A stretch of 48,779 nucleotides of DNA from an uncultured Halobacteriales archaeon (GTDB taxonomy: Archaea > Halobacteriota > Halobacteria > Halobacteriales > CAZPIG01). The stretch spans positions 10,658-59,436 of the forward strand of contig CAZPIG010000002.1 in NCBI GenBank assembly GCA_964586205.1, in the 5' to 3' direction. Below are positions 1,754-48,694 of this stretch, piece by piece. The notes beneath the pieces were generated by a model. That model searched no databases. It was not told where the DNA came from and saw only the letters and a program-made list of their open reading frames with translations. Position numbers and translations under genes: made by a program. Numbering within the stretch: the stretch's first letter is position 1; every line of letters begins with the position of its first letter.

Positions 1754-2161
1754 TCACCTAGTCATGGGGGGCGAAACTTCCACGGTCCCGTCGCTCTCGA
1801 CTTCGACGTGGAGGACCCATCCCGGTTCAGCCTCGCCCATCGTCCGAGCGTCGTTCGCTCCGGCTTCTGTTTCCGCGGCGACCCGGTAGCGCCCGGCCCG
1901 GTCGAAGCATCGCTGCTCGAACGCTTCGCCGGCGGCGACTGCGACCTCCCGGTCGAAGACCTGCTGGTCGTTCACCTCGATTGTCACCGTCACGTCGTGA
2001 GACTGGTCGTCCTCGTTCTCCAAGCGGAGACAGACGGGGGCGGACAGCGTCTCGTAGGTGGGCGTCGTCGGCGTTTCCGTGTCGGCACTTCCCGGGACAT
2101 CGAGGCAGCCGGCGAGGCTGGCGAGGGTGGTGGTCGTGGCGAGGAGGGTGCGGCGGTGCAT
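1754..2161 (-). CDS. Small Tat-lipoprotein, paralog 3 of 3 (135 aa; alternative upstream start at 2194)
   Basis: Starts MHRRTLLATTTTLASLAGC. The EQMHRR context is the same as in paralog 1. Carries PVCLRLEN, RCFDRAGRYRVAAETEAG. Confidence 0.8.
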   Translation of the reverse strand: MHRRTLLATTTTLASLAGCLDVPGSADTETPTTPTYETLSAPVCLRLENEDDQSHDVTVTIEVNDQQVFDREVAVAAGEAFEQRCFDRAGRYRVAAETEAGANDARTMGEAEPGWVLHVEVESDGTVEVSPPMTR

Positions 2162-2206
2162 CTGTTCCAAGTTCGTTTTCGAAGTTGACTTCATTAAGTT
2201 ATCCCC

Positions 2207-3675: not shown

Positions 3676-3887
3676 TCTACTGCTGCAAATGCGATAGTAA
3701 GCCACATATACATTTCCGCAATACACTTAGTGACCTCGCATCGAAGGCATCTAGTGACATAGAGTCACAACATTGGAACGGCTCGGTTCACTCGGGGGTT
3801 AGGTCCTGCTTCCAGCCGCAGTGATTGTCTCCTCAATTCCACCCGCGTCCGACACCCTAATACCCCACCGCACCGACCCTCCAACGA

Positions 3888-6389
3888 ATGGACGACGCCC
3901 CGGAGTGGCGACCCGTGTTCGGCCACGACGAGCCCTACGAGGGCCAGGCCGAGGGCATCGAAACCGCCGTCGGGACCGCCCGCGACGGCGGCTTCCTCGT
4001 CCTCGAGGGGGCCTGCGGGACCGGCAAGACGATGCTCGCGCTGACCGCGGGCATCCACCTCGTCCGCGACGGCGACTCGAAGTACGACCGCGTGGTCGTG
4101 CTGACCAGCGTCAAACAGCAGCTACGGCAGTTCGAGGCGGACCTCCGGACCATCAACGCGAACCTCCCGGACGACTGGGCCCCCGTGACGGGGCTGACCC
4201 TCGTCGGGAAGGCCGACGTCTGCCCGTACAACCGCGCGGGCGCGGGCGGCATCGACGACGAGAACGTCTACGAGCGCTGCGAGTCGCTGCGGGACCGCAC
4301 CCGCGAGCTAACGGGCGAGGACGGCTCGACCACGGCGGGGGCGCTGGCCAGCGAGGCCCGCAGCCAGCAGGTCGGACTGCTGGACACGGGCAGCGGGGGA
4401 CCGACGACTGGAACTGCCGACGGGCCGTCCACGAGCGGCTCCGCCGGCGCGGGTGCCGGCGACGGCACCGCCAGCGGCTCCACTGCGGGAGGCAACAGCG
4501 GCCCCGCCGCGGGCGGCGACGCCGCCGGCACCGCGGCCGCCGCCTCCTACCTCGAAGCCGCCGGCGAGATGGCCCCCTACGCGCCCGACATGCCCGAGGT
4601 CGACGACACCGAGTACTGCCCGTTCTACGCCCAGTACCTCGACGACCTCCCCGAGGACGGCGACCCCGCCGAGGCCGTCCCGTTCGACCTCACCGACGTG
4701 GGGCTGGTCGAGCCCGACGACCTCGTCGCGATGTCGGTCGAGTACGGCACCTGCCCGCACTCGATGATGGGCGCGCTCCAGGCCCACGCCGAGGTCGTCG
4801 TCGGCAACTACTACCACGCCTTCGACCCGACGACCGTCGCCTCGTTCACGGGCGCGCTGCTGGACGACAGCACCTTCGTGGTCTGCGACGAGGCGCACAT
4901 GCTGGAGCCGCGGGTCCGCGACCTCGTCAGCGACGCCGTCGGTGACGCGACCCTCCGGACCGCGGTGACCGAGCTGAACCGCGTGCTCTCGCCCCTGGAG
5001 GCCGACGAGAGCCCCGGCGAAGCGACCAGCGGCGCGGACGCGGTGACCCCCGACCTCGTCCGTGGGGAGTTGGCCGACACGGACATCTCCAGAAGCGAGA
5101 TCGAGGTTACCCGCGAGTTCGTCCGAGACCTGCGCGAGGAGCTGGACCGGCGGGTGACGGCCTACCTCGACCGCGAGCACGAGGGGTGGCGCGCGGACCT
5201 GACCGAGCTATCGGACGAGGAGATACCGCTGCGGGACCCCGAGCGACCCGCGCCGGACGAGATAACGAAGTGGGCCGCCGACGCGGGCTACGACGGCGGC
5301 GTCTGGGTCCGCGCTGAAGCAGTGGGGGCCATCGTGGCACGCATCCTGAACGAGGCCGACGACGAGGAGGCGACCCGCGCCGCGCCCGCCGTCGGGCGGG
5401 TGCTCGGCGCGTGGTACCGCGAGGACCACCAGCGCTACTTCCGGGAGATAACGCTCGACCGCACGTGGGACGACACCGAGCCGTCGGACTCGTGGCGGCG
5501 CGCGTACAACGCGCGGCTGGCGATGCAGAACTGCGTCCCCAGCGACGCCATCGGGAACCAGCTAGCGGAGTTCGGCGGCGGCGTGCTGATGAGCGCCACC
5601 CTCGAGCCCCTCGACGTGCTGACGGAGGTGACGGGCCTGAACCACCTAGAGAGCGAGGGCCGGCCCGTCGCCCAGCGCCGCCAGGGGCTGAACTTCCCCG
5701 CCGAGAACCGCGAGAGCTTCGCGGTCGCGGCCCCGAAGTTCACCCACGACAACCGCGGGCCGCCCGGGGGCGACAGCGCGGTCCGGGCGGTGTACGCCGA
5801 CGCCATCGCGGAGGTCGCCCGCTCGCCGGGCAACGTCCTCGTGGGGATGCCCTCCTACGGCGAGGCCGAGTGGGCCGCCCGCGTCCTGCGCGACCGGGTG
5901 GACAAGGAGGTGCTCATCGACGAGAGCAGCGCCGACGACGTGACCGAGGCGCTGAAGGAGCGCTTCTTCGCGGGCGACCCGAAGGTGCTGGTGACGAGTC
6001 TGCGCGGGACGCTGACCGAGGGCGTCGACTACGAGGGCGACAAGCTACGCGCCGCGGTGGTCTGCGGCGTGCCCATCATCAACACCGCGAGCGCGCGGAC
6101 CCGCGCGGTGCGGACGGCCTACGACGACGCCTTCGGCGACGGCTTCCGGTACGCGCTGTCGGTGCCGGCGGTCCGGAAGGCCCGCCAGGCGCTGGGCCGG
6201 GTCATCAGGGGGCCGGAGGAAGTCGGGGTGCGGGTGCTGGTGGACGAGCGCTACGCGCGGGAGTCGTGGGACAGCGTTCGTGACTTGCTGCCGCCCGCGG
6301 AGCGCGCGGAGTTCCAGCCGGTGAGTCCGGACATGGTGGGATTGGGGCTAGAGCGGTTCTGGGATGGGGTGGACGTAGACGAGGGGTGA
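3888..6389 (+). CDS. XPD/Rad3-family (DinG-like) ATP-dependent DNA helicase
   Basis: Walker A GACGTGKT and DEAH box VVCDEAHML. Four Cys spaced as in the XPD 4Fe-4S domain (DVCPYN, YERCESL, EYCPFY, GTCPHS). C-terminal helicase motifs (SATL, TSLRGTLTEGVDY, QALGRVIR). Confidence 0.9.
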   Translation: MDDAPEWRPVFGHDEPYEGQAEGIETAVGTARDGGFLVLEGACGTGKTMLALTAGIHLVRDGDSKYDRVVVLTSVKQQLRQFEADLRTINANLPDDWAPVTGLTLVGKADVCPYNRAGAGGIDDENVYERCESLRDRTRELTGEDGSTTAGALASEARSQQVGLLDTGSGGPTTGTADGPSTSGSAGAGAGDGTASGSTAGGNSGPAAGGDAAGTAAAASYLEAAGEMAPYAPDMPEVDDTEYCPFYAQYLDDLPEDGDPAEAVPFDLTDVGLVEPDDLVAMSVEYGTCPHSMMGALQAHAEVVVGNYYHAFDPTTVASFTGALLDDSTFVVCDEAHMLEPRVRDLVSDAVGDATLRTAVTELNRVLSPLEADESPGEATSGADAVTPDLVRGELADTDISRSEIEVTREFVRDLREELDRRVTAYLDREHEGWRADLTELSDEEIPLRDPERPAPDEITKWAADAGYDGGVWVRAEAVGAIVARILNEADDEEATRAAPAVGRVLGAWYREDHQRYFREITLDRTWDDTEPSDSWRRAYNARLAMQNCVPSDAIGNQLAEFGGGVLMSATLEPLDVLTEVTGLNHLESEGRPVAQRRQGLNFPAENRESFAVAAPKFTHDNRGPPGGDSAVRAVYADAIAEVARSPGNVLVGMPSYGEAEWAARVLRDRVDKEVLIDESSADDVTEALKERFFAGDPKVLVTSLRGTLTEGVDYEGDKLRAAVVCGVPIINTASARTRAVRTAYDDAFGDGFRYALSVPAVRKARQALGRVIRGPEEVGVRVLVDERYARESWDSVRDLLPPAERAEFQPVSPDMVGLGLERFWDGVDVDEG

Positions 6390-6410
6390 CGAACGCTCGT
6401 CGCCGCTCGC

Positions 6411-7793
6411 TCAGTCGATGAGTCGCTCGCGGACGGAGCCGGGCGAATCACCCGAGATACGGTTGTAGAGGCTCGTCACCTGCTCTTCAGTCATGCTCGC
6501 GATGATGTCGGCGACGACCCTGGCGCGCCGACGGTCCGCCTCGTCGCCGCCGTTCTCGTCGTTTATCGTCTCGATCTCGTCGTCGAACGGGGCCGGGATG
6601 ATCTCCGTCGTGCTTGAATCGGGGGCCGCGGCAGCGAAGAGCGTCTCGAAGACCTCGCCGATTATCTCCCGGTGGCCCTCCTGCTGGGCGACGAGCGTCG
6701 GGTGGTTGAACACGTAGTGCTCGGTCATGAACTTCAGCAGGAGTACCTCGTTCCGACAGACGTTCGGGACTGACAATCCGCCATTAGCTTTGGAATCGAG
6801 TGAGACGTCTATGTCCTCACTGATTCCGAGGTATCGCTCGACGAACGAGGACGTCAGGAAGTGCAGTGCGGCGTTCTCCTGCTTCGAGTTCTTGAACGGC
6901 GAGCGAAGGAAGTTCCGGTCGGTTCCGGCGACCGTCGCGATGTTCTCGACGTCGGTGGCCAGAAAGTCCAGGGCGTCCCAATCCCCAACTACGTCGTCCC
7001 CCTTCTCCTCGTCGAACGCGTCGATGAAGTCCGCGCGCTCCTCCGTATCTCGCAACAGTTCGCCGAAGGGGATGATTCCGGCGCGGTAGAAGTCCGCGAG
7101 GTCGTGGATGGCGTAGGCGAGGTCGTCAGCCCAGTCCATGATCTCCGCTTCGACGCACCGCTGCTCGCCGTCCGGCGGCGTTATCTCGCGTGCCGCCTCG
7201 AATTCGTCTTTCTCGCTGTGGTAGTAGCCCCACTTTTTCCTCTTCGTTCCACCGGTGGCCCGTCCCCACGGGTACTTCAGCATGGCATTCAGGGAGGCCC
7301 GGGTCAAATCAAGCCCGTCGAAATCAGTTGCGTTACTGTGGGTCGCGACGTGGTTGACGATGCGGAACGACTGGGCATTGCCCTCAAAGCCGTCGGGGAC
7401 GTCCATAGCGGTCGTCCGTTCGTCCAGTTCGGTTTCCGCGACGTGTCCGAACGGCGGATGGCCGAGGTCGTGGGCGAGCGCCGCGGTTTCGACTACGTCC
7501 GGGTCCAGACCGCCGATCTCGTCGAGAACGCCGCTCTCGTACTCGCCGTCTTCGACCTTCTGGAGCTGGTACTCGGCCAGGCGGCGACCCACTTGGGCCA
7601 CCTTCAGCGAGTGCGTCAGCCGATTGTGGTAGGTGTGGCTCTCCCCGACGTGGACCACCTGCGTGACCTCGCCGAGCCGCCGGAACGCTCTGCTGTACAG
7701 GATTCGGTCCCTGTCCCGCTCGAACGGCGACCGCTGGTCGTCGGCGTCGGGGCTGCCGTGTATCCGACGTTCCCGGAGCGGGAGACTGCCCAT
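6411..7793 (-). CDS. dgt: dGTP triphosphohydrolase-like HD-domain protein
   Basis: RSPFERDRDRILYSRAFRRLGEVTQV, NRLTHSLKVAQVGR and AALAHDLGHPPFGH are the classic dGTPase/HD motifs. Confidence 0.85.
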   Translation of the reverse strand: MGSLPLRERRIHGSPDADDQRSPFERDRDRILYSRAFRRLGEVTQVVHVGESHTYHNRLTHSLKVAQVGRRLAEYQLQKVEDGEYESGVLDEIGGLDPDVVETAALAHDLGHPPFGHVAETELDERTTAMDVPDGFEGNAQSFRIVNHVATHSNATDFDGLDLTRASLNAMLKYPWGRATGGTKRKKWGYYHSEKDEFEAAREITPPDGEQRCVEAEIMDWADDLAYAIHDLADFYRAGIIPFGELLRDTEERADFIDAFDEEKGDDVVGDWDALDFLATDVENIATVAGTDRNFLRSPFKNSKQENAALHFLTSSFVERYLGISEDIDVSLDSKANGGLSVPNVCRNEVLLLKFMTEHYVFNHPTLVAQQEGHREIIGEVFETLFAAAAPDSSTTEIIPAPFDDEIETINDENGGDEADRRRARVVADIIASMTEEQVTSLYNRISGDSPGSVRERLID

Positions 7794-7825
7794 AAAAAGA
7801 GGGCAGGAAGATAGGGAAGATAGTA

Positions 7826-8011
7826 TTATTGGTCTTCCAGCATGAGGTCCCAGTCCAGCGTGTACGAAACGTCGCCGCGCTCCATGAGTCCCCGCAGTGC
7901 GTGGAGCACCTCGCTCTCGGGGACACCGTTCATCTCCTGGAGGAGGGCGCTCTGGCCCATCGTGCCGCCCGAACTGGAGATCTTAGTTTTCACTTCGTCC
8001 TCTATCTTCAT
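7826..8011 (-). CDS. Small (61 aa) possible winged-helix protein immediately upstream of dgt
   Basis: MKIEDEVKTKISSSGGTMGQSALLQEMNGVPESEVLHALRGLMERGDVSYTLDWDLMLEDQ. A TATA-like gatatatac lies about 24-32 nt upstream of this ATG. The longer 75-aa start at 8053 would include the promoter. Confidence 0.55.
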   Translation of the reverse strand: MKIEDEVKTKISSSGGTMGQSALLQEMNGVPESEVLHALRGLMERGDVSYTLDWDLMLEDQ

Positions 8012-9788: not shown

Positions 9789-10622
9789 CTACGCACCCGA
9801 CTCCACGGGTCCGCCGACGGCCTCCCACTCCGTCAGGCTGCCCTCGTAGAACGCCACGTCCTCGTAGCCGAGGTGCCGCAGAACGAGGTAGGTGTGGCTG
9901 ATGCGTCGCGCGGTGTTGCAGTAGAGCACCACCCGCCGGTCGGGCGCGATGCCGTGGTCGGCGAGGATGGACTCCAACTCGGCCCGCGGCTTCAGCCCGC
10001 GGCTCTCCTCGTCGACGAGGTCGCGCCAGTCTATCTGGACCGCGCCGGGGATGTGGCCCTCCTCGTACTCCCACGGCTCGCGGGTGTCCACGAGGACCGC
10101 GTCCGACTCGATGGCCTCCTCGACGGCCTCGCGGGGCACGAGAGGGGATTCGGTCGCCCGCTCTGCGGCGTAGTCGGTCGGCTCCGGGTCGACGCCGCCC
10201 CGGTCGCTCGGGTGCTCGCGGGTCCACGCGCTGAAGTCGCCGTCGAGCAGGCGCACGTCCTCGTGACCGTACGCCAGCGCGGTGACGACGAACCGGGCGG
10301 CGAAGACGCCGTGGGTGTCGTCGTAGGCGACGACGGTGTCGTCCCGGGCGACGCCCGCCTTCGACATGAGGTCCGCGAAGACCTCCGCGCCGGGGAGCAT
10401 CCCCTCGTCGCCGTCCTCGCTGCGGAACGAGTCGAAGGGGACGTTCGCCGCGCCGGGGACGTGGCCGATGCCCTCGTACTCCCACTCGTCGCGCACGTCC
10501 ACGACCGACACGCCCGGCTGCCCGAGGCGGTCGGCCAGCCAGTCCCTGGAGACGACGACGCTCGCGGTGTCGTCGCCGGTCGTCGCCCCGTCGCCGGTCG
10601 GCCCGTCGTCGCCGGTCATCAC
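9789..10622 (-). CDS. Two-domain rhodanese sulfurtransferase
   Basis: Tandem rhodanese domains. Active-site loop YCNTARRIS. C-terminal YEGSLTEWE. Confidence 0.85.
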   Translation of the reverse strand: MMTGDDGPTGDGATTGDDTASVVVSRDWLADRLGQPGVSVVDVRDEWEYEGIGHVPGAANVPFDSFRSEDGDEGMLPGAEVFADLMSKAGVARDDTVVAYDDTHGVFAARFVVTALAYGHEDVRLLDGDFSAWTREHPSDRGGVDPEPTDYAAERATESPLVPREAVEEAIESDAVLVDTREPWEYEEGHIPGAVQIDWRDLVDEESRGLKPRAELESILADHGIAPDRRVVLYCNTARRISHTYLVLRHLGYEDVAFYEGSLTEWEAVGGPVESGA

Positions 10623-10884: not shown

Positions 10885-11748
10885 ATGAGCGACTCCGATT
10901 ACGCCAACGACGTGCTCGTATCGGCCGACTGGGTGGAGGAGCGACTGGACGAGTTCGGGAGCGACGACCCCGGACTCCGGCTGGTCGAGGTCGACGTGGA
11001 CACCGAGGCCTACGAGGAGGCCCACGCGCCCGGTGCCATCGGCTTCAACTGGGAGACCCAGCTACGGGACGACACCCGGCGCGACATCCTGAGCAAGGAG
11101 GACTTCGCGGACCTGCTGGGCAGCCACGGCATCAGCGAGGACTCGACGGTCGTGCTGTACGGCGACAACTCCAACTGGTTCGCCGCCTACACCTACTGGC
11201 AGTTCAAGTACTACGGCCACGAGGACGTGCGCCTGCTCGACGGCGGCCGCGACTACTGGCTCGACGAGGACTACCCGACGACGGACGAGGTCCCGGACTT
11301 CTCGGCCGTCGACTACGAGGCGCGCGGGCCGTTCGAGGGCATCCGGGCGTACAAGGAGGACGTCGAGCAGGCCATCGAGCGCGGCCTGCCGCTGGTCGAC
11401 GTCCGCAGCCCCGAGGAGTTCCGCGGCGAGATACTCGCGCCGCCGGGGCTCCAGGAGACGGCCCAGGTCGGCGGTCACATCCCGGGCGCGCGGAACATCT
11501 CGTGGGCCGACACCGTCAACGACGACGGGCGGTTCAAGAGCTACGACGAGCTGCGCGAGCTGTACGAGAGCGACGGCGTCACCGACGACCAGGCGGTCGT
11601 CGCGTACTGCCGCATCGGCGAGCGCTCGTCCATCGCGTGGTTCGCGCTCTCGGAGCTGCTGGGCTACGACAACGTCACCAACTACGACGGCTCGTGGACC
11701 GAGTGGGGCAACCTCGTCGGGTCACCGGTGGCGACGGGCGACGAGTAG
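10885..11748 (+). CDS. Two-domain rhodanese (thiosulfate/3-mercaptopyruvate) sulfurtransferase
   Basis: Active-site loop YCRIGERSS and YDGSWTEWGN. Paralog of the divergently transcribed 9789..10622. Confidence 0.9.
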   Translation: MSDSDYANDVLVSADWVEERLDEFGSDDPGLRLVEVDVDTEAYEEAHAPGAIGFNWETQLRDDTRRDILSKEDFADLLGSHGISEDSTVVLYGDNSNWFAAYTYWQFKYYGHEDVRLLDGGRDYWLDEDYPTTDEVPDFSAVDYEARGPFEGIRAYKEDVEQAIERGLPLVDVRSPEEFRGEILAPPGLQETAQVGGHIPGARNISWADTVNDDGRFKSYDELRELYESDGVTDDQAVVAYCRIGERSSIAWFALSELLGYDNVTNYDGSWTEWGNLVGSPVATGDE

Positions 11749-12121
11749 GGGTCGTCACCGAAATACTAGTTTTCCGCTCGCAGTACCTTTTCCATGAGGA
11801 CTAGTTTTGCGGGGAGACAATAATGATTTCCCGGTTATTTACTCTAACGGAACAGACATCAATGGAACTTTGATACTATCCGGAGAGGCAGTAATCATTT
11901 AAGTATGACTAGCGACAATACAAGTAAATGAAGGGAGGGGCGCTTTGGTGTCCTAGCTGTTCTCGTTGGTTCAAACTGGTTCAGCTTTGCCCTCCCCGTT
12001 CTTGCGCAGCTAATCACGTTGAGCGTGCTGACCACCGTCGACCAGGCAGTAAAGTTTTCAAAACGACAACGGTGCTAATCAGTATCTTCACCGGGAACAA
12101 TCGGTTACCCCAGTAACAACA

Positions 12122-13213
12122 ATGACAAAGGACGAACATTCGGAAGACACCTCAAACAGCCGCACAATTCCGAAAGAGGTTCAGGATATATCGACGGAAG
12201 AAATAATCGAAAATGAGTATGACGTCCCTCTGATGTCGAAGGACGGGGCCTCAAAATCGGAACCAAAAACAGGTACAAAACATCTACCAGCACCCTCCCC
12301 TCCAGGGAGGACGGTATATGACGACAGTATTGAAGCCTCCACAGAAGACCTTGGGGGAGACAAAACAGGCTATAATTTCAGTGCGGGACACGAGATGTCG
12401 TCGGCAACCACTGTCGGAAAACCAGACGATCCCCACTACGACGAGAAACTGCAAAGAATGAATGATGGTCGTCATCGTTCGGAGGGAACCCTCAGCCATC
12501 GACAAAGTCGATGGGACAAGAAACGGATCACTCAGGCGATCTGTTCGGACCTTCCAATCTCAAGACGACAGAAGGAGAAAGTCGTTCACTCAATGGAACA
12601 GTTGGATCTTGATCGATTTGGCCATCAAAAAGCCATTGAGCGAGTCTGCCTTGGCACGGTTGCGGTTATTGTAAATCAAGAGCGTGTGGACTTGGCCGGC
12701 GATGAAGATGTTACTCTAATTTCATGGGAGGAGGAATTTCAGACCCTCTGTGATAAATATGGAGTCTCCATGAGCGATCTAACGACTGTTAAGGACATTG
12801 TTCGCGAGGAACTTAATAATGAACCGCCGGAACCTTCCAATACAGGGATTAGACGAGACCCAAACCTACCGGAACCAGACCCGGCAGAGAAACCGGATGA
12901 ATACTGGCAACGCAAGGGTTCCGGGTACTGGGTGAGGCTAGCTAAAACATGGAGTTTTCGGGATGACAATCTTAAAGAAGCTATCCCCGACGAGAAACAA
13001 AAGATAATTGATCTTTTGAGAAGATGGAAGCCATGGGAACAATCAGAGCAACAGTCAAACAAGGAGTGGGACGAAGACGAGTCTATTCAGGCCCCTGAAA
13101 CATCTCCAAAAGTAGAACCTAAACCCACGGAATTGCAAGATGTTACCGTTGAAGATGAAATTGAGGCAGCAGTGGTAGAGTTGGTGGAGGAGTTACGAGA
13201 AGGTGAAGAGTAG
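12122..13213 (+). CDS. Orphan acidic protein (363 aa) in AT-rich island
   Basis: The only long ORF in the low-GC patch at about 11760-13700, with a clean ATG. The ends are acidic and low-complexity. The central segment RITQAICSDLPISRRQKEKVVHSMEQLDLDRFGHQKAIERVCLGTVAVIVNQER...DKYGVSMSDLTTVKDIVREEL loosely resembles a TFB/cyclin-box repeat (unverified). Confidence 0.65.
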   Translation: MTKDEHSEDTSNSRTIPKEVQDISTEEIIENEYDVPLMSKDGASKSEPKTGTKHLPAPSPPGRTVYDDSIEASTEDLGGDKTGYNFSAGHEMSSATTVGKPDDPHYDEKLQRMNDGRHRSEGTLSHRQSRWDKKRITQAICSDLPISRRQKEKVVHSMEQLDLDRFGHQKAIERVCLGTVAVIVNQERVDLAGDEDVTLISWEEEFQTLCDKYGVSMSDLTTVKDIVREELNNEPPEPSNTGIRRDPNLPEPDPAEKPDEYWQRKGSGYWVRLAKTWSFRDDNLKEAIPDEKQKIIDLLRRWKPWEQSEQQSNKEWDEDESIQAPETSPKVEPKPTELQDVTVEDEIEAAVVELVEELREGEE

Positions 13214-13327
13214 TCCAATCTTCCAACGTGAAGACTTTATCTGAATAGTAGGAGGCTAATATAGAAACACTGGCCTCCACGTAAACGACAGTCAGCGATC
13301 CTTCGAAACTACCATCGTGAGGTACCC

Positions 13328-13660
13328 TTGAACCGTGACCCTTATGGCCGTCATTCAAAACGGCGGCCAGAGGCGTCTGAACCTATATTAATATTTCAGA
13401 ATTCGTTAGAGTTCCAAATCGCAGCCAGGGGCGCACTATCTCTGATTGGTGGGTGCTTTGTCCTTTGCGCTGTTCTACTGTTTTTCGCTGGTTTCCATTT
13501 TGCAACACCCGTATCATATGCCGGCGTTGCGATTGGCCTGTTCGCGAACGCATTCCCTCGTCAACTGTCGGTTTCCGTCACTATTTTGTCGATGGTTAAA
13601 TTCGAATCTGATTTCAGAATATCTATTTCAATCGAGGTTAGTTTATCTTGTGACCAATAA
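13328..13660 (+). CDS. Possible small 2-TM membrane protein (TTG start; weak)
   Basis: Two hydrophobic stretches (ALSLIGGCFVLCAVLLFFAGF, VSYAGVAIGLFANAF). There is no ATG start, and it lies in AT-rich DNA where chance ORFs are rarer than in the GC-rich backbone. Confidence 0.25.
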   Translation: MNRDPYGRHSKRRPEASEPILIFQNSLEFQIAARGALSLIGGCFVLCAVLLFFAGFHFATPVSYAGVAIGLFANAFPRQLSVSVTILSMVKFESDFRISISIEVSLSCDQ

Positions 13661-27404: not shown

Positions 27405-28967
27405 CTACCGCCCGTCGTACACCACCTCGCCGTCCACCACCGTCAGCGCCACGTCGATGTCCTCGATGGCCCCGGAGTGCTCCCACGGCGACCGCTCTAA
27501 GGCCACCAGGTCGGCCTTCTTGCCCGCCTCGACCGTCCCGAGGCGGTCCTCGTCGAAGCCCGCGTAGGCCGCGCCGCGGGTGTACGCCCGCAACGCCTCC
27601 GTGACCGACAGCCGCTGGGACGGCTCGGGGGCGTTCACGGTCTGGTGGACGCCGAACAGCGGGTCGAGCGGCATGCAGTCGCTGCCGAACGCGAGGTGGA
27701 CGTCGGCCTCCAGGAGGTCGCGGAACCGATTGGTCCGCGCGCGGCGCTCGTCGCCCAGCCGCGCCGCGTAGAGGCCGCCCTCGCGGGCCCACTTCAGGAA
27801 GTTCGGCTGGACGGAGGCGACGACGCCGCTGTCGGCGAACTGCTCGACGTGGCCCGCGTCGAGTAGCTCGGCGTGCTCGACCCGGTGGCGGGCCGCGCCG
27901 GGGTCGTCCGTCCCCTCGACGAACGCGTCCAGCGTCTCCCCGACGGCCGCGTCGCCGATGGCGTGGACGGTGAGCTGGAAGCCCTCGCCGTCGGCGCGCT
28001 CGACGAGGTCGCGTAGCTCGTCGGGGGCCACCACCCACTGGCCGGTGCGGTGGTCAGAACCTTCGTCGGCATCCGCGTAGGGCTCGGTCAGCTTCGCCGT
28101 CCGACCGCCGAACGAGCCGTCGGTGAAGCTCTTGATGGCTCCCACCCGGACGAACTCGCTGCCGTGGTTCGTGGTCAGTCCCGTCTCGACCAGCGCGTCC
28201 ACGTGGTCGCTCCAGTAGTTCAGCCGGACGCGGAGGTCCAGCGCGCCCTCGCGGTCCAACTCGCGGTAGACGCGTGGTTTGTGCGACCGCCGGACCATGT
28301 CGTGGACGCCCGTGACGCCCAGCGCGTGGGCGCGGTCGCGCGCCGCGGTCAGGAGGTCGCGGGTCGCCGCGCGGTCGGGCGCGACCGCCGCGCGGACGAC
28401 GCCGACGGCGTCCTCCACGACGACGCCGGTCGGCTCGCCGCCCTCGCGGCGGACGTTCTCCGACGCCATCTCGCCGACCAGCCGGTCGAGTGCGACCGAG
28501 TTCAGGCTCGCGAGGTGGCCGTCCTCGCGGACGGCGGCGACGGGGCGGTCCTCGCTGACCGCGTCCAGGTCGTCGCTGGTGAGGTACCGCTGCTCGCCGC
28601 TCCAAGTGCTCTCGTCGTAGCCGTAGCCCAGTATCCAGTCGTCGGTCGAGGAGTCGTCGCTGTTTGTTGATTCTGCTAGCAACTCCACGCAGTCCTCGAC
28701 CCCGTCGGCGGGCCGGAGGTCGGCGTACACCTCGTACCGCCCGACGGCCTCCATGTGGGTGTGGGCGTCGGTGAAGCCCGGCAGGAGGACGCGACCATCG
28801 AGGTCGACGACGTCCGTCTCGACGCCTTCGAGGAACGCTATCTCGTATGCACTGTCCACGCTGACTATCTCGCCGTCGCGGACGGCGACGGCCTCGTGGG
28901 TCTCGTCCGGGTCGGCGAGGGTGTGTACCTCGGCGTTCGTGAAGATGCGGTCCGCGGCTTCGGTCAT
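27405..28967 (-). CDS. Amidohydrolase-family metal-dependent hydrolase (YtcJ-like)
   Basis: LLPGFTDAHTHME (HxH), HAIGD, EHAELL, FGSDCMP. Start MTEAADRIFTNAEVHT at 28967. Confidence 0.85.
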   Translation of the reverse strand: MTEAADRIFTNAEVHTLADPDETHEAVAVRDGEIVSVDSAYEIAFLEGVETDVVDLDGRVLLPGFTDAHTHMEAVGRYEVYADLRPADGVEDCVELLAESTNSDDSSTDDWILGYGYDESTWSGEQRYLTSDDLDAVSEDRPVAAVREDGHLASLNSVALDRLVGEMASENVRREGGEPTGVVVEDAVGVVRAAVAPDRAATRDLLTAARDRAHALGVTGVHDMVRRSHKPRVYRELDREGALDLRVRLNYWSDHVDALVETGLTTNHGSEFVRVGAIKSFTDGSFGGRTAKLTEPYADADEGSDHRTGQWVVAPDELRDLVERADGEGFQLTVHAIGDAAVGETLDAFVEGTDDPGAARHRVEHAELLDAGHVEQFADSGVVASVQPNFLKWAREGGLYAARLGDERRARTNRFRDLLEADVHLAFGSDCMPLDPLFGVHQTVNAPEPSQRLSVTEALRAYTRGAAYAGFDEDRLGTVEAGKKADLVALERSPWEHSGAIEDIDVALTVVDGEVVYDGR

Positions 28968-29335
28968 GGTTCGACGGGCGTGGGCAGCGAGGAAAACGGT
29001 TTGGGAAGGAATCATTTTAAAGTTTGTAGAGCATGAGCCTTATCTTCTAAATGGATTGCGAAAGGTAGTGAAATATGAAGGTGTGACGAGAAGTGACGCC
29101 TGACCAGTGGATTGCCGGCTAGATTTCCTAGAATAATTGTAACGTAAAGGGGTAAAAACGTTTCCCTGCGTCAAAATTCTCGTTTAAACATAGCTAAAAC
29201 ACGAATGTTCTTGGGAATTGGTGATATTTTGGCATTCCTAGGGTCCAGCTTGGTCCTACTGCGGGTTTCTCGAAAACTAGCAAAGGGAAACTGGTTCCAA
29301 TAAACTTATAAGCGATGGGGGGTAAAACTCCGATT

Positions 29336-29653
29336 GGCTACGACGCGGTGGGAAGCGCTTTTCTCACCGCACTTATAATATTACGGAGAGCCATCCTTTT
29401 AAGTCACGACTCTAGTTTAAGTAGGGTCATCGTCCTCTCGACCACTTTCACTCCGGTATCACTACATTAAAGGCCATTGAATTGGGGTGAGGTGAATCAA
29501 ATGTTCGAACTCGTAAAACGGGCGTTAATGATGTCCTACTCTGTTACAAACCCATTCCAGTGATTCTAATCCGGGCGGATAGAATCGAAAGGCTTTATTA
29601 CCTTTCGGCCGAACGACCTGCTGGGAGCGAGATTCTCCCACCGCGTCGTAGCC
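29336..29653. repeat. 18-bp perfect inverted repeat pair (ggctacgacgcggtggga 29336-29353 / tcccaccgcgtcgtagcc 29636-29653)
   Basis: Verified base by base; 282 bp separate the arms. The left arm also forms a local 10-bp hairpin (29345-29354 with 29361-29370, one G-U pair). Confidence 0.9.
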
Positions 29654-29885
29654 AGACGCCAACTGAGGCCGCGGAGGTTCCGCGGAACCAATATACGCCC
29701 TCGGGCGATGCTGGAGTTCACCCGGCATCGCGGGAGCAGGTCCTCCGTTGACCTGCATTTGCAAGGCAAGAACCCGCGATGTCGCCTGCCCAGCGACGAC
29801 TCTGAGGGTTGCCTTACCGGGGGCATCCGGCCTCGAAATATGACCGCGAGTAAACAAAGGACCACCCCCGCCAAGGGGGTATGAG
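29560..29885 (+). ncRNA. Candidate structured RNA or long structured 5' leader upstream of the ParB/Srx-like ORF (strand assumed from the downstream gene)
   Basis: There is no credible ORF here. Eight hairpins read by eye: 29562-68/29580-86; 29586-92/29601-07; nested 29607-09, 29613-17, 29623-27 with 29635-39, 29645-49, 29651-53; 29669-75/29679-85; 29705-14/29722-31; 29736-42/29750-56; 29763-69/29809-15 enclosing 29781-85/29793-97; and 29865-69/29875-79. Confidence 0.3.
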
Positions 29886-29888
29886 ACG

Positions 29889-30899
29889 ATGAGTTCGAAC
29901 AGCAACCAACCCCAGAATGGGTCTGGGGCACCAAGCCCGGGTCCGGATCCCACCGAGGAGATACCGGACACGATTCCGGCAATCGAGGAGCAACGGGTCC
30001 TGGTCGGCTTCATGGGTCCCGACGATGCTGTGGGGTGGCTCCAACAGTCCAAGCGGGTTCGGAACCCCATCGACCTCGCCGAGCGAGAGGAGATGGACGA
30101 AGCCGAAATCGAGCAGCACCAGGAAGCCATCCAGCAACAACTCCTCGACGAGTGGGAGGCTGCCCAGAAAGCCATCCCCGAGATCGAAGGAGTTGGGGCC
30201 GGCAGCTTCGGAGTGGAGGAACTCCCAAACGACCCGGCCGTTCAGAGCCACCTCGACGAGTACGCGGGGAAAGACGGCTTCCAGGAGGCGATGAGCGATG
30301 TCCCCGACATCGAGTGGAAGTTCAAGCGGGTCCCCATCGCGGCCCTCGTGGCGTTCCAGCCACAGGTCACTACGACCGCGTACGAGGACATTTCCACCTG
30401 GAGCGAGGACCCGGCGGCAGTCCTGGAGTACTGCTTCCCGACCGAACAGTCGACCCTCCAGATGACCGGGGTTAACGCTGACGATGACGGCAACCGCGCG
30501 CAAGCCTTCATCGTCAGCCGGTCGCCGAACTTCCAACTCGGTGGCGTCGGTATCGACTCCGGTGGGCCAACATCGGACATCCAGGTCCAGGTGAAACCGA
30601 AGCCGAACTTCCTTCAGGTGGTTCGCTTCCAAGACCGGTACATCCTGAAGAACGGCTATCACCGGACCTACCAGCTGATGCAGGCCGGCGAGGAGTTCGT
30701 CCCAGCAGTTGTCCACGAGGTGGACGACTACCAACTCACTGGGGCAGCCAAAGAGGGCGCCTTCCCGCCGGAAGTGGTGCTGGGCGACCGGCCCCCGATG
30801 ATGCCGGACTTCAACTCCGGCGCGGCCGTCACTCTGGAGACGCCAGCGACCAACACGGTCATTGAAGTGGTGGCGGACAAGAAGCAGATTCCCCGATAG
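29889..30899 (+). CDS. Orphan protein (336 aa) with a possible ParB/Srx-fold C-terminal region
   Basis: Clean ORF with intermediate GC. WKFKRVPIAALVAFQPQV and later PNFLQVVRFQDRYILKNGYHRTYQLMQAGEEFVPAVVHEV resemble the ParB/sulfiredoxin (DGQHR/GxxR-type) core. The N-terminus is disordered and is followed by an acidic coiled segment. Confidence 0.7.
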   Translation: MSSNSNQPQNGSGAPSPGPDPTEEIPDTIPAIEEQRVLVGFMGPDDAVGWLQQSKRVRNPIDLAEREEMDEAEIEQHQEAIQQQLLDEWEAAQKAIPEIEGVGAGSFGVEELPNDPAVQSHLDEYAGKDGFQEAMSDVPDIEWKFKRVPIAALVAFQPQVTTTAYEDISTWSEDPAAVLEYCFPTEQSTLQMTGVNADDDGNRAQAFIVSRSPNFQLGGVGIDSGGPTSDIQVQVKPKPNFLQVVRFQDRYILKNGYHRTYQLMQAGEEFVPAVVHEVDDYQLTGAAKEGAFPPEVVLGDRPPMMPDFNSGAAVTLETPATNTVIEVVADKKQIPR

Positions 30900-31023
30900 G
30901 GACCCTATTCGGGGATTTTTCGACTCGGAAAGCACTAGCTATTATTCGGACGTGGAGGGGGCTGTCGCTGGCTGGACTGCGCGTTGGCTCGCCACGATAG
31001 TCCTCGATAGCGAAGAGGCTGCC

Positions 31024-34000
31024 TCACGCCACCTCGGCAGCGACCTCCAGGCGCTCGACCATCCGCTCGGCGAGGTCGACCAGCTCGGAGCGCGTCACGT
31101 CGTTCAGCGCCGCGCCGTCGGTCGCCCGCAGCTCCGCGCCCGCGAACTCCGCGACCGCCCGCATCGCGTCTGCGGCCGTGCGGTACTCGCCGTCGGCCAT
31201 CAGCCCGGCGACGCGGTCGAGGCGCTCCCCGAATTCACGGCGGAGCGCCTCGCCAGCTCCCTCGTCCGCGCCATCCTCCGGGACCGCCCGCTCGTCCAGC
31301 CGCCCGACGGCGTCCCGGACGCTGGCGACGATGGGGTTCAGCTCGCTCTCCACGCCACCGACCGCGGTCCGGACCGAAACCACCGGCTGTGCGAAGGGGG
31401 CGACCACGTCCACGACGCCCGCGACGTCCGGCCCATCGCTCGCCTCGACGGTGGTGTCCACCCGCTCGCTGTGGCGGACCTCGCCGGCGGGGTCGAGGAA
31501 CGCGACGGTGGCGAGGTCGCCGCGCTCCCCATTCTCGCCGTCGCCCTCGTCTCCTTCACCGGCCTCCTCCGTCGTGGGGTAGCCCAGGTAGGCCGACACG
31601 GAGTCGAAGCTGACCCGGCCCTCCTCGTCCACCCGCCCCAGCGCCGACAGCACGTCCAGCGGGCCGCCGGACGTGCCGGGCGAGAAGCCGCCCTCGATGA
31701 CGTGCTGCTGGAGCCGCGAGTCGGTCCACGTATCGTCGTCGTCACCGGAGTAGCTCATGTAGCTGTCCTGGTCGTCGTGGCTCCACGGCGTCGCGATGGT
31801 GTCCACGTCGAAGTCGCCCGACCCGTCGAAGCCCCAGCCGTTCACCAGCGTGAACGTCCCGTCGGTGAGGTCGTAGCCCTTCGAGACGACGCCCGCGGCG
31901 TCGAAGTAACCGACGGTGTTGGTGTTGTTGGAGCTCGTGTGGCGCGCGTGGTCGTAATCGATGCCGGCAGGGCTGCCGGAGACCTCCGTCCCGTCGTCGT
32001 CGCGCTGGGCCATGGGGTGGTTCCAGCTCCCGGAGGTCGGTCCCTGGTAGGCGTCGTCCACGAGGTGGTGGCCTATCTCGTGGGCGGTCGTCCCCGCGAC
32101 CTCGACGAACGTGACGCCCGGGTCGCCGGCTTCGAGGACGGCCATGGCCTGGTTCTTCGTGTACTGCCGGCCGCGCAGACGCTGGTTCCCGGTGTGGTAG
32201 TTGAAGTAGTGCGTCGCCCCGGAATTGCTCGTGTCGTTGCCCGGCACGATGCAGACGACGGCGTCGAAGCCGTTGGACCGGAGGTCCCGGAACGCCGCCC
32301 GGTCGCTCGACTCGCTGTGCTCGACGACGTCCGCGGCACCGTTGGCGACCGTCTTGTGGCCGAGCAGCTGGTCCATCGCGTCCTTCGTGGCCTTCATGTC
32401 CCAGAACACCTGGTCGTTGTTGGTGGTCCGCGACCGCCCGGTGACGATCTCGCTGGCCCGGTAGGCCGTGACGTCCTTCCCCGGCAGGACCCGCTTCACG
32501 TACTGGACGGCCCGGTCCACGGTGGCCCGGAACTGCATCGGCTGACCGTTCGAGTCGCCGTACCGGCTCCCGTCGGCACGGTCCCACAGCTGGACGAACC
32601 CCACTCGGAACGTGGGGACGGTCGAGACGTCGAAGTCCCGGCCCTCCTCGAGGATGGCGACCTCGCCGGTCGAGCCGACGTTCCACCCGGCGCTGAGTTC
32701 GACCTTCTGTAAGCTGTCGTCCACTTCGAACACCGTCGGGTCGTTGCCCGTCCCGGAGTCGTGGGCGTTGTTGTGGAGGATGCCCAGCATCGGGACGCCG
32801 GCGTCGATGGCCTTCGCGTCCGCCTTCGATATCGTGTACGTGTCGGTGTGGCGACCGCTGCCGTCCGTCCACGTTATCTCGACGGTCGTCTGACTCGGGA
32901 ACAGGTCGACGTGGTCGACGGTGGCGTCGAAGGCGACCGTGGCGTAGTCGCCGGCCACGATGGCCGGGTCGTCGACGGTGTAGGTGCTGGACCCGCCGAC
33001 GACGCGGGTCTTCTCGACGGTCTGGACGAGCCTGACGTCCGAGAGCTGGATGTCCGGCTGGGGCCCGGTCGAGCCGCCGCCGGGGATTATCTCCATACAC
33101 TCGTCTAGCTCGGGGACGCCACCGTTGCGCGGGCAGACCGTCACCGTCTCGAGAGCCCCGACGAGGCGCTCGTGGAGGCGGTCGAGGTCGCGCTCGGTGA
33201 GCGTGCAGTCGGGGTTCAGACAGCCGAGGCGCTCCTGGATGGACTCGGTGACGGTGGGGCGCTCCTCGACGCCGCCCACGACGACGGTGTCGGAACCCCG
33301 GCCGGCCAACAGGCCGCCGGTGTCGGTCCCGTCCTCGGCCCGCTCGGATTCGTTCGCTGCGTCCGCGTCGATGCCTTCGGCCCCTTCGCGCGTCCCGCGC
33401 GCGAGGTGCAAGAGGACCTGCGAGCCGCCCTCGCCCTCGCCGTCGGCCCCGCTCGCACCCGCGGTGCGGCCGTAGTAGCTGACCACCTCGACCTCCGAGC
33501 CGAACAGCGTGGCGGTCGTCTCGCCCACCCGCTCGGGCGCGCGGTCCCACTCGGGGACGTCCCCGACGACGTCGGCCTGCCGGAGCAGCCGCCGGCCCGT
33601 CTCGCCGGCGACGAGGTCGTCGAGCGGCCTCGTCGCGAGCGGATTGCGGGCCGCGCCGGCGATGTTCGCCGACGGCGTCGCGAGCACGCCGACCGACAGC
33701 GTCCCGGGGACGTCCTCCTCGTAGGTGGCCGGGAGGTCGCCGCCGAGGTCCACGTCGGACCGGTAGGTCACGAGGTGGCTGGTCGTCGAGAACTCGGTCT
33801 GCGCGCCGCCGACGCCGACGGTGCGCGAGCGCTCGATGCGCTCGTGGCTGGCCGTCGAGAGTCCGAGCCGGTTCGTGCCGGCCTCTCCGAGGCCGGCGGG
33901 CAGGGCCGCGAACTCGCGGTTCGTCACCTCCTGGCAGCCCGCGAGGCCGGTCGCCACCGCTCCCGCGCCGAGGTGGGCCAGAAAGCGCCTGCGATTCCAC

Positions 34001-34029
34001 GCGCCGTCAGCGTCGTCGCGTCCTGTCAT
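31024..34029 (-). CDS. Large Tat-lipoprotein with HExxH zinc-metalloprotease motif (about 1001 aa)
   Basis: Start MTGRDDADGAWNRRRFLAHLGAGAVATGLAGC at 34029 (RR motif plus lipobox). VEVAGTTAHEIGHHLVDDAYQG lies in the C-terminal half. Confidence 0.8.
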   Translation of the reverse strand: MTGRDDADGAWNRRRFLAHLGAGAVATGLAGCQEVTNREFAALPAGLGEAGTNRLGLSTASHERIERSRTVGVGGAQTEFSTTSHLVTYRSDVDLGGDLPATYEEDVPGTLSVGVLATPSANIAGAARNPLATRPLDDLVAGETGRRLLRQADVVGDVPEWDRAPERVGETTATLFGSEVEVVSYYGRTAGASGADGEGEGGSQVLLHLARGTREGAEGIDADAANESERAEDGTDTGGLLAGRGSDTVVVGGVEERPTVTESIQERLGCLNPDCTLTERDLDRLHERLVGALETVTVCPRNGGVPELDECMEIIPGGGSTGPQPDIQLSDVRLVQTVEKTRVVGGSSTYTVDDPAIVAGDYATVAFDATVDHVDLFPSQTTVEITWTDGSGRHTDTYTISKADAKAIDAGVPMLGILHNNAHDSGTGNDPTVFEVDDSLQKVELSAGWNVGSTGEVAILEEGRDFDVSTVPTFRVGFVQLWDRADGSRYGDSNGQPMQFRATVDRAVQYVKRVLPGKDVTAYRASEIVTGRSRTTNNDQVFWDMKATKDAMDQLLGHKTVANGAADVVEHSESSDRAAFRDLRSNGFDAVVCIVPGNDTSNSGATHYFNYHTGNQRLRGRQYTKNQAMAVLEAGDPGVTFVEVAGTTAHEIGHHLVDDAYQGPTSGSWNHPMAQRDDDGTEVSGSPAGIDYDHARHTSSNNTNTVGYFDAAGVVSKGYDLTDGTFTLVNGWGFDGSGDFDVDTIATPWSHDDQDSYMSYSGDDDDTWTDSRLQQHVIEGGFSPGTSGGPLDVLSALGRVDEEGRVSFDSVSAYLGYPTTEEAGEGDEGDGENGERGDLATVAFLDPAGEVRHSERVDTTVEASDGPDVAGVVDVVAPFAQPVVSVRTAVGGVESELNPIVASVRDAVGRLDERAVPEDGADEGAGEALRREFGERLDRVAGLMADGEYRTAADAMRAVAEFAGAELRATDGAALNDVTRSELVDLAERMVERLEVAAEVA

Positions 34030-34164
34030 CGGCCTTCTAACGACACGGTGTCTGACACCGTCTCCAATCAGTGGATACGCTAGGTAGTTAGACTCAGTCG
34101 GACTGGACATCCACTGGGGACCCTGACGGGGCCGTCGTGGGTCAGCCGGGACGCCAGCGTCCCT

Positions 34165-36985: not shown

Positions 36986-37636
36986 TCAACTCGTGAACTC
37001 GTTTCCCATGCAATCGCTGTAGTATCGGTCCTTGTCTCCACAGTAGCAGGCCAGTGTGTCGGTCCCGCAGTCGTTGGTCTCGCCCTTGAGTCCCCCGTAG
37101 CTCACGACGATGGGTGTCCAGCACTCGATCCCATTCGGGGAAGTCGTGTCTGCCCCGTGATGGATGCTGGATGTGTGGCGCCCCCCGAAATTGTGCCCAA
37201 TCTCCATCAGCGCCCCGCAGAGGTAGAAATGGGTCGAATTTTGTCCCGTCGAGAATCGGGGGACACCGCTGATGCCATTCACATTGTCGAAGGCTTTCCC
37301 GCCTTCGATCATGGCCGCATCGCCGCCGATCTCGGCACAACCATCACCGTTGATGTCGTCGTTGCGACCGCGGCGAGTTATTAGAAGGTTGCTCTCCGAC
37401 TTCTTCAATATATTACTATTGTTGACACGTTGCTTCCAGTTGCTCCACGGGCTACCGTCACAGTCCCCATCTTGCCCCCCGACATCGTACGACTTATCGA
37501 CGACGGTAACATTCGAGGTAATTGATTGGTGTTGTAACGCATCCTTCAGCCCATCCTTCACCAGTTGGGCCGCGTGGAGGCCGTTGGCGCCGTATTCCTT
37601 GTCCGTTACGTACAAGCTCACGTTGATGTCTGCCAT
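36986..37636 (-). CDS. Signal-less Cys-rich metzincin/reprolysin-like protein with a Met in place of the first zinc His (MEIGHNFGGRH)
   Basis: 216 aa. CGALMEIGHNFGGRH matches HExxHxxGxxH at every position except the first. 9 Cys. No signal peptide. Low-GC island, 18 nt upstream of the Tat-signal gene. Confidence 0.7.
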   Translation of the reverse strand: MADINVSLYVTDKEYGANGLHAAQLVKDGLKDALQHQSITSNVTVVDKSYDVGGQDGDCDGSPWSNWKQRVNNSNILKKSESNLLITRRGRNDDINGDGCAEIGGDAAMIEGGKAFDNVNGISGVPRFSTGQNSTHFYLCGALMEIGHNFGGRHTSSIHHGADTTSPNGIECWTPIVVSYGGLKGETNDCGTDTLACYCGDKDRYYSDCMGNEFTS

Positions 37637-37941
37637 GTTTCAATTTCCTGTCGCCCGTCCAATCGGGCGTAAAGGAACAGTATCGGTATAATATTAAATC
37701 ATTTCACTAACGCATTAGATATTCAGTTTGAAATTCACTAATTTTAGTAATCGAAAAATGTTCGCCCTCGGACCACGTACCTGCAGTTGATGTATCCGGC
37801 AGACGGCCTCCAACCAGGGTGAGGTGCGTCTCTCAAGTTGGGGCTTCGAACGCTACGTCAAGATACTTCCGTCCGAATTTTGCTAAGAACGAATAGATCA
37901 CCCGCGAGTCTGGCTATCTGCGCGGTCACGCTGGAATAGTT

Positions 37942-38196
37942 CTACAGACGGTGCAGGAGGTATCCGGAGATCAGAACGAACCCGAGGCCAATGACGAGCG
38001 GTGCAACGACGAAGAGCGGATGCCAGAGGAAGATCGAACACCCAAAACAGTGCTGTTTCGTCCGCAACAGTGCAGCGGCTCGAAAGTGGACGTAGCTTCC
38101 CGCACCCGTAAGTGCTATCCCAGTCAAGAAGAGCACTCCTGCCAGTGTCTTCCTCCGTCCCCTGTCGATATCCAATAGCATTTTCGACATTGTCAC
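37942..38196 (-). CDS. Small membrane protein (84 aa, 2-3 TM)
   Basis: LAGVLFLTGIALTGAGSYV, CFGCSIFLWHPLFVVAPLVIGLGFVLISGYLL. Low-GC island. Confidence 0.45.
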   Translation of the reverse strand: MTMSKMLLDIDRGRRKTLAGVLFLTGIALTGAGSYVHFRAAALLRTKQHCFGCSIFLWHPLFVVAPLVIGLGFVLISGYLLHRL

Positions 38197-38269
38197 AGTG
38201 AATTAAAGAAAAGCGATGCTTAAGTACCTTGGGGGGCAAACGGCAGCGTTCAGATAAGGACGGAAGGAT

Positions 38270-48498: not shown

Positions 48499-48557
48499 GA
48501 CCTTTTTGCTGCGCGCGAGGGGGCGCGATGCGCCCCCATCGCGCGCCGAAAAAGGTC
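48499..48557. repeat. 59-bp near-perfect palindrome centred at about 48528
   Basis: gaccttttt-gct-gcgcgcga-gggggcgc gat gcgccccc-a-tcgcgcgc-cg-aaaaaggtc. 25 of 28 positions pair. Confidence 0.9.
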
Positions 48558-48694
48558 GATCAAAAATTGGCGTAGACACGCCTGCCGGTACGGAACGTCT
48601 GTCTCCCGGCGCGGTTCGGGATGATTTCTCGCGGGCGGGGAGAGATGTGTTTCTCCCGGCCGAACAACGCCAATTTTTGATCGACCTTTTTCGG
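48546..48694. repeat. 27-bp perfect inverted repeat pair flanking 95 bp (MITE-like or regulatory)
   Basis: ccgaaaaaggtcgatcaaaaattggcg at 48546-48572 and cgccaatttttgatcgacctttttcgg at 48668-48694. The left arm overlaps the right arm of the 59-bp palindrome by 12 nt. Confidence 0.9.

Follow-up and report, generated by a model that had tools for sequence, protein, structure and literature searches.

The locus studied here raises the question of what a hairpin-rich, non-coding gap of 870 nt, lying directly upstream of an unnamed 336-aa open reading frame (ORF), could be doing in a haloarchaeal genome. The window, i.e. the whole stretch of DNA analysed, comprises 48,779 nt from an uncultured Halobacteriales archaeon (GCA_964586205.1, CAZPIG010000002.1, 10,658-59,436), and all coordinates below are window positions. 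The GC content of this haloarchaeal DNA is ~70%, and the gap and the ORF together form a 2-kb block of lower GC between an amidohydrolase gene and a DUF6517 gene. An earlier note on this DNA had singled out 29560-29885 as a candidate structured RNA, acting either as a cis-acting leader or as a guide-like RNA. The evidence favours the first of these and our answer, held tentatively, is that the region is a new sense-strand cis-regulatory leader RNA; what had been noticed would be the GC-rich 3' half of a ~550-nt non-coding leader (~29335-29888), inherited with the ORF as one unit.

The evidence that carries this reading begins with a perfect 19-nt inverted repeat, in which 29335-29353 pairs with 29636-29654 and 282 nt lie between the arms. 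The right arm is found inside the segment first described and the left arm outside it; hence the element is larger than had been proposed, the boundaries 29560-29885 being too small and its start lying at ~29305-29335. The repeat was compared in five loci, namely the window and the metagenomic loci L001, L004, L005 and L002 (gene 58-61% identical; L-numbers label retrieved contigs). Each of the four others displays an 18-19-nt repeat at the same place, its arms separated by 276-340 nt. With the arm core in register, 91 of 92 positions are Watson-Crick pairs and one is U-G. Moreover, two or more types of Watson-Crick pair occur in 10 of the 18 core columns, and every change is compensated. The inner CGGTGRGA of the arms is conserved, and the outer 11 bp change fast and remain complementary.

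Local helices and motifs recur around this pairing. The hairpin hL and the long-range helix compete for the inner half of the left arm, and hL has an equivalent in 5/5 loci. The hairpin hR keeps its loop (CGAGAY or CGGGAC) on stems that are unrelated between lineages, TCGGAG/CTCCGA in L001 and GGGGTC/GACCCC in L002. Outer arms that vary while remaining paired, and a hairpin that keeps its loop while varying its stem, fit a base-paired nucleic acid rather than a protein-binding site on duplex DNA. Further 3', a GC hairpin with a 3-nt loop is found at the same position in 5/5 loci with differing stems, amounting to 33 Watson-Crick pairs, 5 G-U and no A-C. An A-rich motif (ACCAAAnnTACGnCC across loci) lies in each locus 30-45 nt past the right arm, as ACCAAATCTACGACC in L001, L004 and L005 and as ACCCAAACTACGAGCC in L002. 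Finally, the C5/G5 hairpin that stands nearest the start codon in the window corresponds to CCCCCG-AA-YGGGGG in L001, L004 and L005 and to GCCCC-CGCCCC-GGGGC in L002.

The wobble pairs in these helices also indicate a strand. Indeed, the five recurring helices hold ~9 G-U pairs on the plus strand and no A-C, and an 8:0 split has a two-sided binomial p of 0.008. A sense-strand RNA is favoured on four grounds: the wobbles are exclusively G-U on the plus strand; hR keeps its loop and changes its stem, which is the opposite of a palindromic protein-binding site; the outer arm halves evolve fast but stay complementary; and a promoter-like box is placed to start transcription at the left arm, where conservation begins. 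This TATA-like box, the candidate promoter P1, is found 25-27 nt 5' of the first arm base in 5/5 loci, the GC-rich context of L002 included.

The leader and the ORF are tied to each other physically and evolutionarily. Blastn alignment of L001, L004, L005 and L002 to the window is confined to the ORF, hence the leaders have diverged beyond plain alignment; collinear motifs and helices are still kept in the five loci. L001, L004 and L005 are ~80% identical to one another over one block, which begins ~15 nt upstream of a TATA-like box placed 45 nt 5' of the left arm and extends as far as the stop codon, with unrelated flanks on either side. Given this single conserved block, leader and ORF behave as one 1.65-kb unit. 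Among the same three loci the variable sites of the ORF are distributed 38/41/153 by codon position, while those of the leader fall 48/44/44 over the three phases inside the repeat and 27/28/26 after it, and leader indels are 1, 2 and 5 nt long, i.e. not multiples of 3. The leader has no codon periodicity, and no credible ORF is found between the amidohydrolase start and the ATG at 29889, in agreement with the description of the segment as ORF-free. Its sequence is nonetheless constrained: in the GC-rich part after the right arm 28.6% of positions are variable versus 45.5% of codon third positions (Fisher p 1.5e-5). The consensus fold of these three sequences contains 6 pairs changed on both sides versus 3.3 ± 1.3 in column shuffles (19/500 reach 6), a modest support from covariation. 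Overall, with five loci of which three are close to each other, the comparative evidence supports the long helix and three or four of the local helices strongly, and the remaining ones weakly.

The leader is an innovation of one small clade, since the long repeat was not found in the more distant homologs L003, L007-L014 and L018-L024, neither this repeat nor the GC-rich leader occurs at the bacterial plasmid loci or at the haloarchaeal loci of 37-42% identity, and the right arm is missing from L006. Relatives of the ORF number only 11 in a word-indexed search of 5.8 billion proteins.

The GC-rich half was examined for its folding and hairpins. The sharp rise in GC that had been noticed near 29560 is confirmed, with 0.435 at 29400-29599 versus 0.645 at 29600-29799 and a step around 29560. 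The minimum free energy of 29560-29888 on the plus strand is -142.4 kcal/mol versus -120.1 ± 5.2 for dinucleotide shuffles (z -4.31), and the minus strand has a z of -5.0; a folding energy no better than that of shuffled controls is thus not what was observed on either strand. The segment holds 5 perfect Watson-Crick stems of 6 bp or more that do not overlap and have 3-11-nt loops, versus 0.71 ± 0.83 in shuffles, a count reached by 0/500 of these; with a minimum of 5 bp there are 7 stems versus 2.4. Of the eight hairpins originally paired by eye, the density beyond chance stands, but only those at 29622-29640, 29669-29685 and 29864-29880 recur across lineages. In four loci the plus-strand folding z of the GC-rich part ranges from -2.5 to -3.4. 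The last hairpin, ending 8 nt before the ATG, is real; its supposed sequestration of a Shine-Dalgarno sequence is not supported as a conserved function, as the C5/G5 counterpart in L001, L004 and L005 stands ~75 nt upstream of the ATG and no conserved start-region pairing was found. A Shine-Dalgarno-sequestering leader or an RNA thermometer was rejected on the same two points.

The transcription of the leader, its 5' end, its strand and its regulatory outcome are putative and, as far as they can be read from sequence, would be as follows. The leader would be co-transcribed with the 336-aa ORF on the plus strand, as an RNA starting at the left arm. This arm would pair either locally with 29361-29370, forming hL, or over 19 bp with the right arm, and the 19-bp pairing would close off the 282-nt AT-rich unstructured interior. 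3' of the long helix would come, in order, the CGAGAY-loop hairpin, the 3-nt-loop GC hairpin, the A-rich single-stranded motif, variable hairpins and the C5/G5 hairpin. The choice between local and long-range pairing would set the fold of the leader and thereby mRNA stability or translation. Promoter choice, i.e. P1 upstream of the arm versus promoter-like modules of the interior, may influence which pairing is adopted. The features of the locus are collected in Table 1.

Table 1. Positions of the leader elements, the ORF and the flanking genes in the window
Feature	Coordinates	Strand	Remarks
TATA-like box (CTTATAAG), candidate promoter P1	29305-29312	+	would put the RNA 5' end on the first left-arm base or beside it
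Left arm of long-range helix (TGGCTACGACGCGGTGGGA)	29335-29353	+	100% complementary to right arm
Local hairpin hL (GCGGTGGGAA / TTCTCACCGC)	29345-29370	+	uses inner half of left arm; one G-U on plus strand
AT-rich interior	29354-29635	+	46% GC; enclosed by long-range helix
Promoter-like module P2	29442-29473	+	motif CCACTTTCACTCCGGT (common form TTCACTTTCACTCCGGT), then A/T-rich box
Hairpin hR	29622-29640	+	TGGGAG-CGAGATT-CTCCCA; abuts right arm, with a 5-nt overlap
Right arm of long-range helix (TCCCACCGCGTCGTAGCCA)	29636-29654	+	compensated changes in L001, L004, L005 and L002
GC hairpin with 3-nt loop	29669-29685	+	CCGCGGA-GGT-TCCGCGG; just 3' of right arm
A-rich motif (AACCAATATACGCCC)	29686-29700	+	predicted single-stranded; conserved
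Lineage-specific GC-rich hairpins	29701-29863	+	include 29736-29756 and the pairing 29723-29734 / 29773-29784
C5/G5 hairpin	29864-29880	+	ACCCCCG-CCAA-GGGGGT; ends 8 nt before ATG 29889
336-aa ORF	29889-30899	+	unnamed family; invariant NGYHR motif
Amidohydrolase	27405-29015	minus	~71% identity to Halorussus proteins
DUF6517 protein	31024-34110	minus	1028 aa; downstream neighbour

Several observations weigh against a leader RNA. The comparison consists of five loci only, three of them ~80% identical to each other, and L006, whose protein is 48% identical, is compact and has the common motifs without the right arm and the GC-rich part. The GC-rich part itself differs in length and sequence among lineages (234, ~290 or 149 nt from the right arm to the ATG), L002 shows only a weak excess of folding there (z -1.6), and folding energy fails to separate the strands, which fold equally well. 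Furthermore, no conserved pairing was found that would tie the start-codon region to the right arm or to a segment farther upstream. The long-range helix is nearly without G-U, with fewer than most RNA helices, and a DNA-level constraint would also fit. P1 is a consensus match only, and its promoter function is putative. The enclosed interior, which is poorly conserved among L001, L004 and L005 (24-60% invariant per 50 nt), is without structure of its own, no folding excess being found in any of the five loci (plus-strand z -0.8 to +1.4), and carries promoter-like modules; a stretch that is unstructured and has such modules is unusual inside an RNA domain. Lastly, the P2 motif recurs as a 17-22-mer, with TTTTAT after it, in front of a 79-aa ORF in the IMG/VR viral contig L030, hence the interior motif would be a promoter-associated element common to the leader and a haloarchaeal virus or provirus. 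In L030 the sequence GTTCACTTTCACTCCGGT lies on the minus strand at 10495-10560, followed by TTTTAT and, ~25 nt on, by the ATG of the 79-aa ORF; apart from L030, the motif scans of IMG/VR gave chance-level matches only.

The alternative that survives best, and which is nevertheless unlikely, is a two-RNA version of the same regulation. P1 would drive a short sense RNA, the first 19 nt of which are the left arm, pairing in trans with the mRNA leader; the mRNA would start at a proximal promoter near 29622, with the right arm near its 5' end, and the small RNA would be a dedicated regulator. The covariation of the arms supports this model equally, and an interior neither structured nor conserved is as expected for a spacer. 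Moreover, in the window (29592-29602), L001, L002 and L006 a TATA-like box precedes the GGAGCGAG hairpin by ~25-30 nt, and L006 has GGGAGCGAGG just 17 nt 5' of its ATG, which suggests an mRNA start there. However, TATA-like matches come easily in AT-rich DNA, the model requires three promoters within 330 nt and no terminator-like signal is found after hL.

The P2 module has a 16-nt exact match to L004 and is present in L001, L004 and L005, but in L002 it is found on the opposite strand, and a DNA-inversion switch (inverton) was therefore tested. In such a switch the 19-bp repeats would be recombination sites, and flipping the 282-bp promoter segment would turn the ORF on or off. As in invertons, ~19-bp perfect inverted repeats flank a ~300-bp segment with a promoter-like module upstream of a gene; invertible promoters typically have segments and repeats of such lengths, the two arms match each other almost perfectly in each locus, and P2 lies inside the repeat, aimed at the ORF in four loci. 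A simple inverton is nonetheless not supported, because the inner edges beside the arms are unflipped in L002 (AACTCGGTT on the left, the CGGGAC-loop hairpin on the right) and because one orientation is common to all four loci that can be aligned and to an independent Logan assembly of the window's sample, whose contig is identical to the window. The segment as a whole was never seen in the other orientation, and no recombinase gene lies within the 1.65-kb unit. The fast evolution of the outer 11 bp of the arms is unexpected for recombinase binding sites, and the sense-strand-only wobble pairs point to RNA. The inversion switch is, in our view, quite unlikely.

The purifying constraint relative to codon third positions and the collinear motifs and helices kept across lineages beyond blastn alignment make it improbable that the region has no dedicated function, i.e. 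that a long intergenic region here contains a GC-rich spacer full of hairpins or the decayed remains of a small mobile insertion. Target-site duplications at the arms of all five loci, a second copy within the window and matches to plasmid and phage collections were also looked for, and none was found. What speaks for a functionless spacer is that the GC-rich part is missing from L006 and otherwise varies between lineages in sequence and length, that both strands fold equally well and that in L001 GGAGCGA is present ahead of the right arm and again immediately ahead of the ATG, hinting at an old insertion. A miniature inverted-repeat transposable element or small insertion sequence was rejected on the same three negatives. 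The Rep gene of a small plasmid was likewise rejected, as no haloarchaeal plasmid encodes a relative and the contigs are not circular.

For the 336-aa protein, Pfam gives no match in any of 12 close or 10 distant family members, and an exhaustive profile search gives 1190 clusters at E<=0.001, hence a sizeable unnamed family. A 90-sequence profile matches SbnI (5ujd, 6nr6) and SerK (5x0b and others) with E 0.002-0.003 over 30-46 residues, aligning with the G-x-H-R core strand-helix region of these ParB/Srx-fold proteins. Only ~46 residues match, the rest of the 336-aa protein being without recognisable relative, and no curated threshold is reached, the NCBIfam SerK matches in distant members scoring 11-17 bits versus a cut-off of 380. 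The AlphaFold2 model has a predicted local distance difference test score (pLDDT) of 76, and its ParB/Srx matches in Foldseek are recurrent but non-significant (E 0.012 or worse). The family thus appears to resemble free serine kinases weakly, the profile match being weak, and the label 'ParB/Srx-like' given to the protein in the earlier note is reasonable at the superfamily level, with the kinase branch closest, but the protein is not a ParB.

Bacterial plasmid homologs (~24% identity) are located in L015 at 5593-6810, in L016 at 5575-6807 and in L017 at 1334-2593 and 3516-3698. They follow 50-60-aa ORFs with a double-glycine-type leader (e.g. MRDLHEFEWAHVSGAG) and Ser/Lys-rich cores (SKSKGSKSKG...), and precede genes for HlyD and a C39-peptidase ATP-binding cassette (ABC) exporter; one locus also has a 2-oxoglutarate (2OG)-Fe(II) oxygenase. 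This peptide and exporter context, taken with the similarity to SbnI and SerK, suggests an undescribed peptide-modifying (serine kinase-like) family. The haloarchaeal homologs, with 37-42% identity, are located in L019 at 1408-3333, in L020 at 4262-6130 (also L021-L024) and in L018 at 4848-7843. In their cassette the homolog is followed by a 55-62-aa ORF and then, in L019-L024, by an Asp_protease_2 protein, and the surroundings are those of mobile elements, with D5 primase, integrases, TFIIB, HicA and a divergent Cdc6.

A guide-like RNA serving a ParB-type DNA-binding protein is not supported, as the family profile matches the free serine kinases SbnI and SerK rather than ParB and distant members lie in peptide-export clusters. 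A related possibility, which we consider distinctly improbable, is that leader and ORF are a self-contained, horizontally moving haloarchaeal RNA-protein module with the RNA as partner or substrate of a SerK/SbnI-like enzyme. For example, the RNA would be bound or phosphorylated by the protein, or processed at the 19-bp helix into a stable ~320-nt RNA. Such a module would explain why both parts are inherited as one block with unrelated flanks.

A replication origin is very improbable. Haloarchaeal origins have inverted origin recognition box (ORB) elements around an AT-rich stretch beside an initiator gene (PMC3528665), a layout that the inverted repeats around an AT-rich stretch beside the ORF resemble; the unit is a discrete low-GC block, and relatives of the ORF stand in mobile-element contexts, one of them beside a divergent cdc6 gene. 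However, the arms differ from the ORB example of PMC3528665, having neither the ORB core nor the terminal G-string of halophiles, and the neighbours in the window are the amidohydrolase and the DUF6517 protein, with no adjacent orc1/cdc6 gene. The protein family looks like an enzyme, which in bacteria stands within peptide-export clusters, and an origin leaves the GC-rich hairpins and the sense-strand wobble bias unexplained.

That the gap hides a small gene for a precursor peptide of the downstream enzyme is scarcely credible: bacterial homologs do come after an ORF of 50-60 aa that has a double-glycine-type leader, a 55-aa ORF comes after the haloarchaeal relatives and in the window an ORF of 20 aa (MFELVKRALMMSYSVTNPFQ, 29501-29563) stands behind a strong Shine-Dalgarno-like GGTGAGGTGA (29486-29495), but this ORF is absent from L001, L004 and L005, no ORF is conserved across the five leaders, where all-against-all ORF comparison gave only low-complexity mixed-strand matches, and there are neither codon periodicity nor indels in multiples of 3.

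Regarding the surroundings, the amidohydrolase is given 520 aa in NCBI (P0185), so its start is probably at ~28967 and the non-coding gap would measure ~920 rather than 870 nt. The nearest genome with this flanking gene is that of Halorussus caseinilyticus (71% identity); the neighbours of its amidohydrolase differ, and the insertion boundaries could not be defined by synteny with it. An 11-nt perfect complement, TGTTCGAACTC / GAGTTCGAACA at 29502-29512 / 29891-29901, covers two start codons, that of the small ORF and that of the main ORF; it is specific to the window and absent from the other four loci. A 16-nt perfect inverted repeat links 30070-30085, within the 336-aa ORF, and 31064-31079, at the 3' end of the convergent DUF6517 gene. 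Elsewhere in the window, two further islands of low GC (<52%), at ~11700-13650 and ~37350-38200, may also represent foreign insertions. An inverted repeat of 34 nt (97% complementary) is found at 10238-10271 / 11212-11245, 940 nt apart, with the pair 10369-10386 / 11097-11114 nested within it, and a 28-nt perfect AT-rich inverted repeat at 48546-48573 / 48667-48694, 93 nt apart, near the window end.

Scanning of the whole window with Rfam 15 gave 0 matches at gathering thresholds, and at E<=10 the region 28950-31100 has only two chance-level matches, both outside the element. The Rfam scan of the homologous loci gave nothing, nor did tRNA and tmRNA scans. The earlier statement that the segment is not a recognised RNA therefore stands. 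Independently of the leader, the locus flags an uncharacterised protein family of ~1190 clusters that has no Pfam model, and the bacterial context of which suggests an undescribed type of peptide modification.

In layout only, the unit recalls the retron msr-msd, as the order of promoter, inverted-repeat arm at the RNA 5' end, ~280 nt, second arm and ORF is alike, the 19-nt arms matching the retron a1/a2 repeats. Unlike in retrons, the ORF is not a reverse transcriptase, no such match being found in Pfam, NCBIfam or PDB; the msr and msd of retrons are hairpin-rich, and the region enclosed here has no excess structure (z ~0, five loci). The closest comparison for the favoured cis-regulatory leader is with structured 5' leaders such as riboswitch expression platforms, attenuators and the T-box. 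Unlike these, it has no Rfam-matching ligand-binding core, no terminator and no conserved start-site sequestration, and its closing helix encloses 282-340 nt of AT-rich sequence without structure. Most haloarchaeal mRNAs are leaderless and, to our knowledge, few such structured cis-regulatory leaders are known in archaea, hence the leader would be unusual. If the reading is true, a 550-nt conserved leader with a co-varying long-range helix would represent an unusual and testable RNA-level control in Halobacteria. Like the known cis-regulatory 5' leaders, it is non-coding, on the sense strand by its wobble pairs and directly upstream of one gene, it has covarying helices, and the inner half of its left arm has two alternative partners in 5/5 loci.

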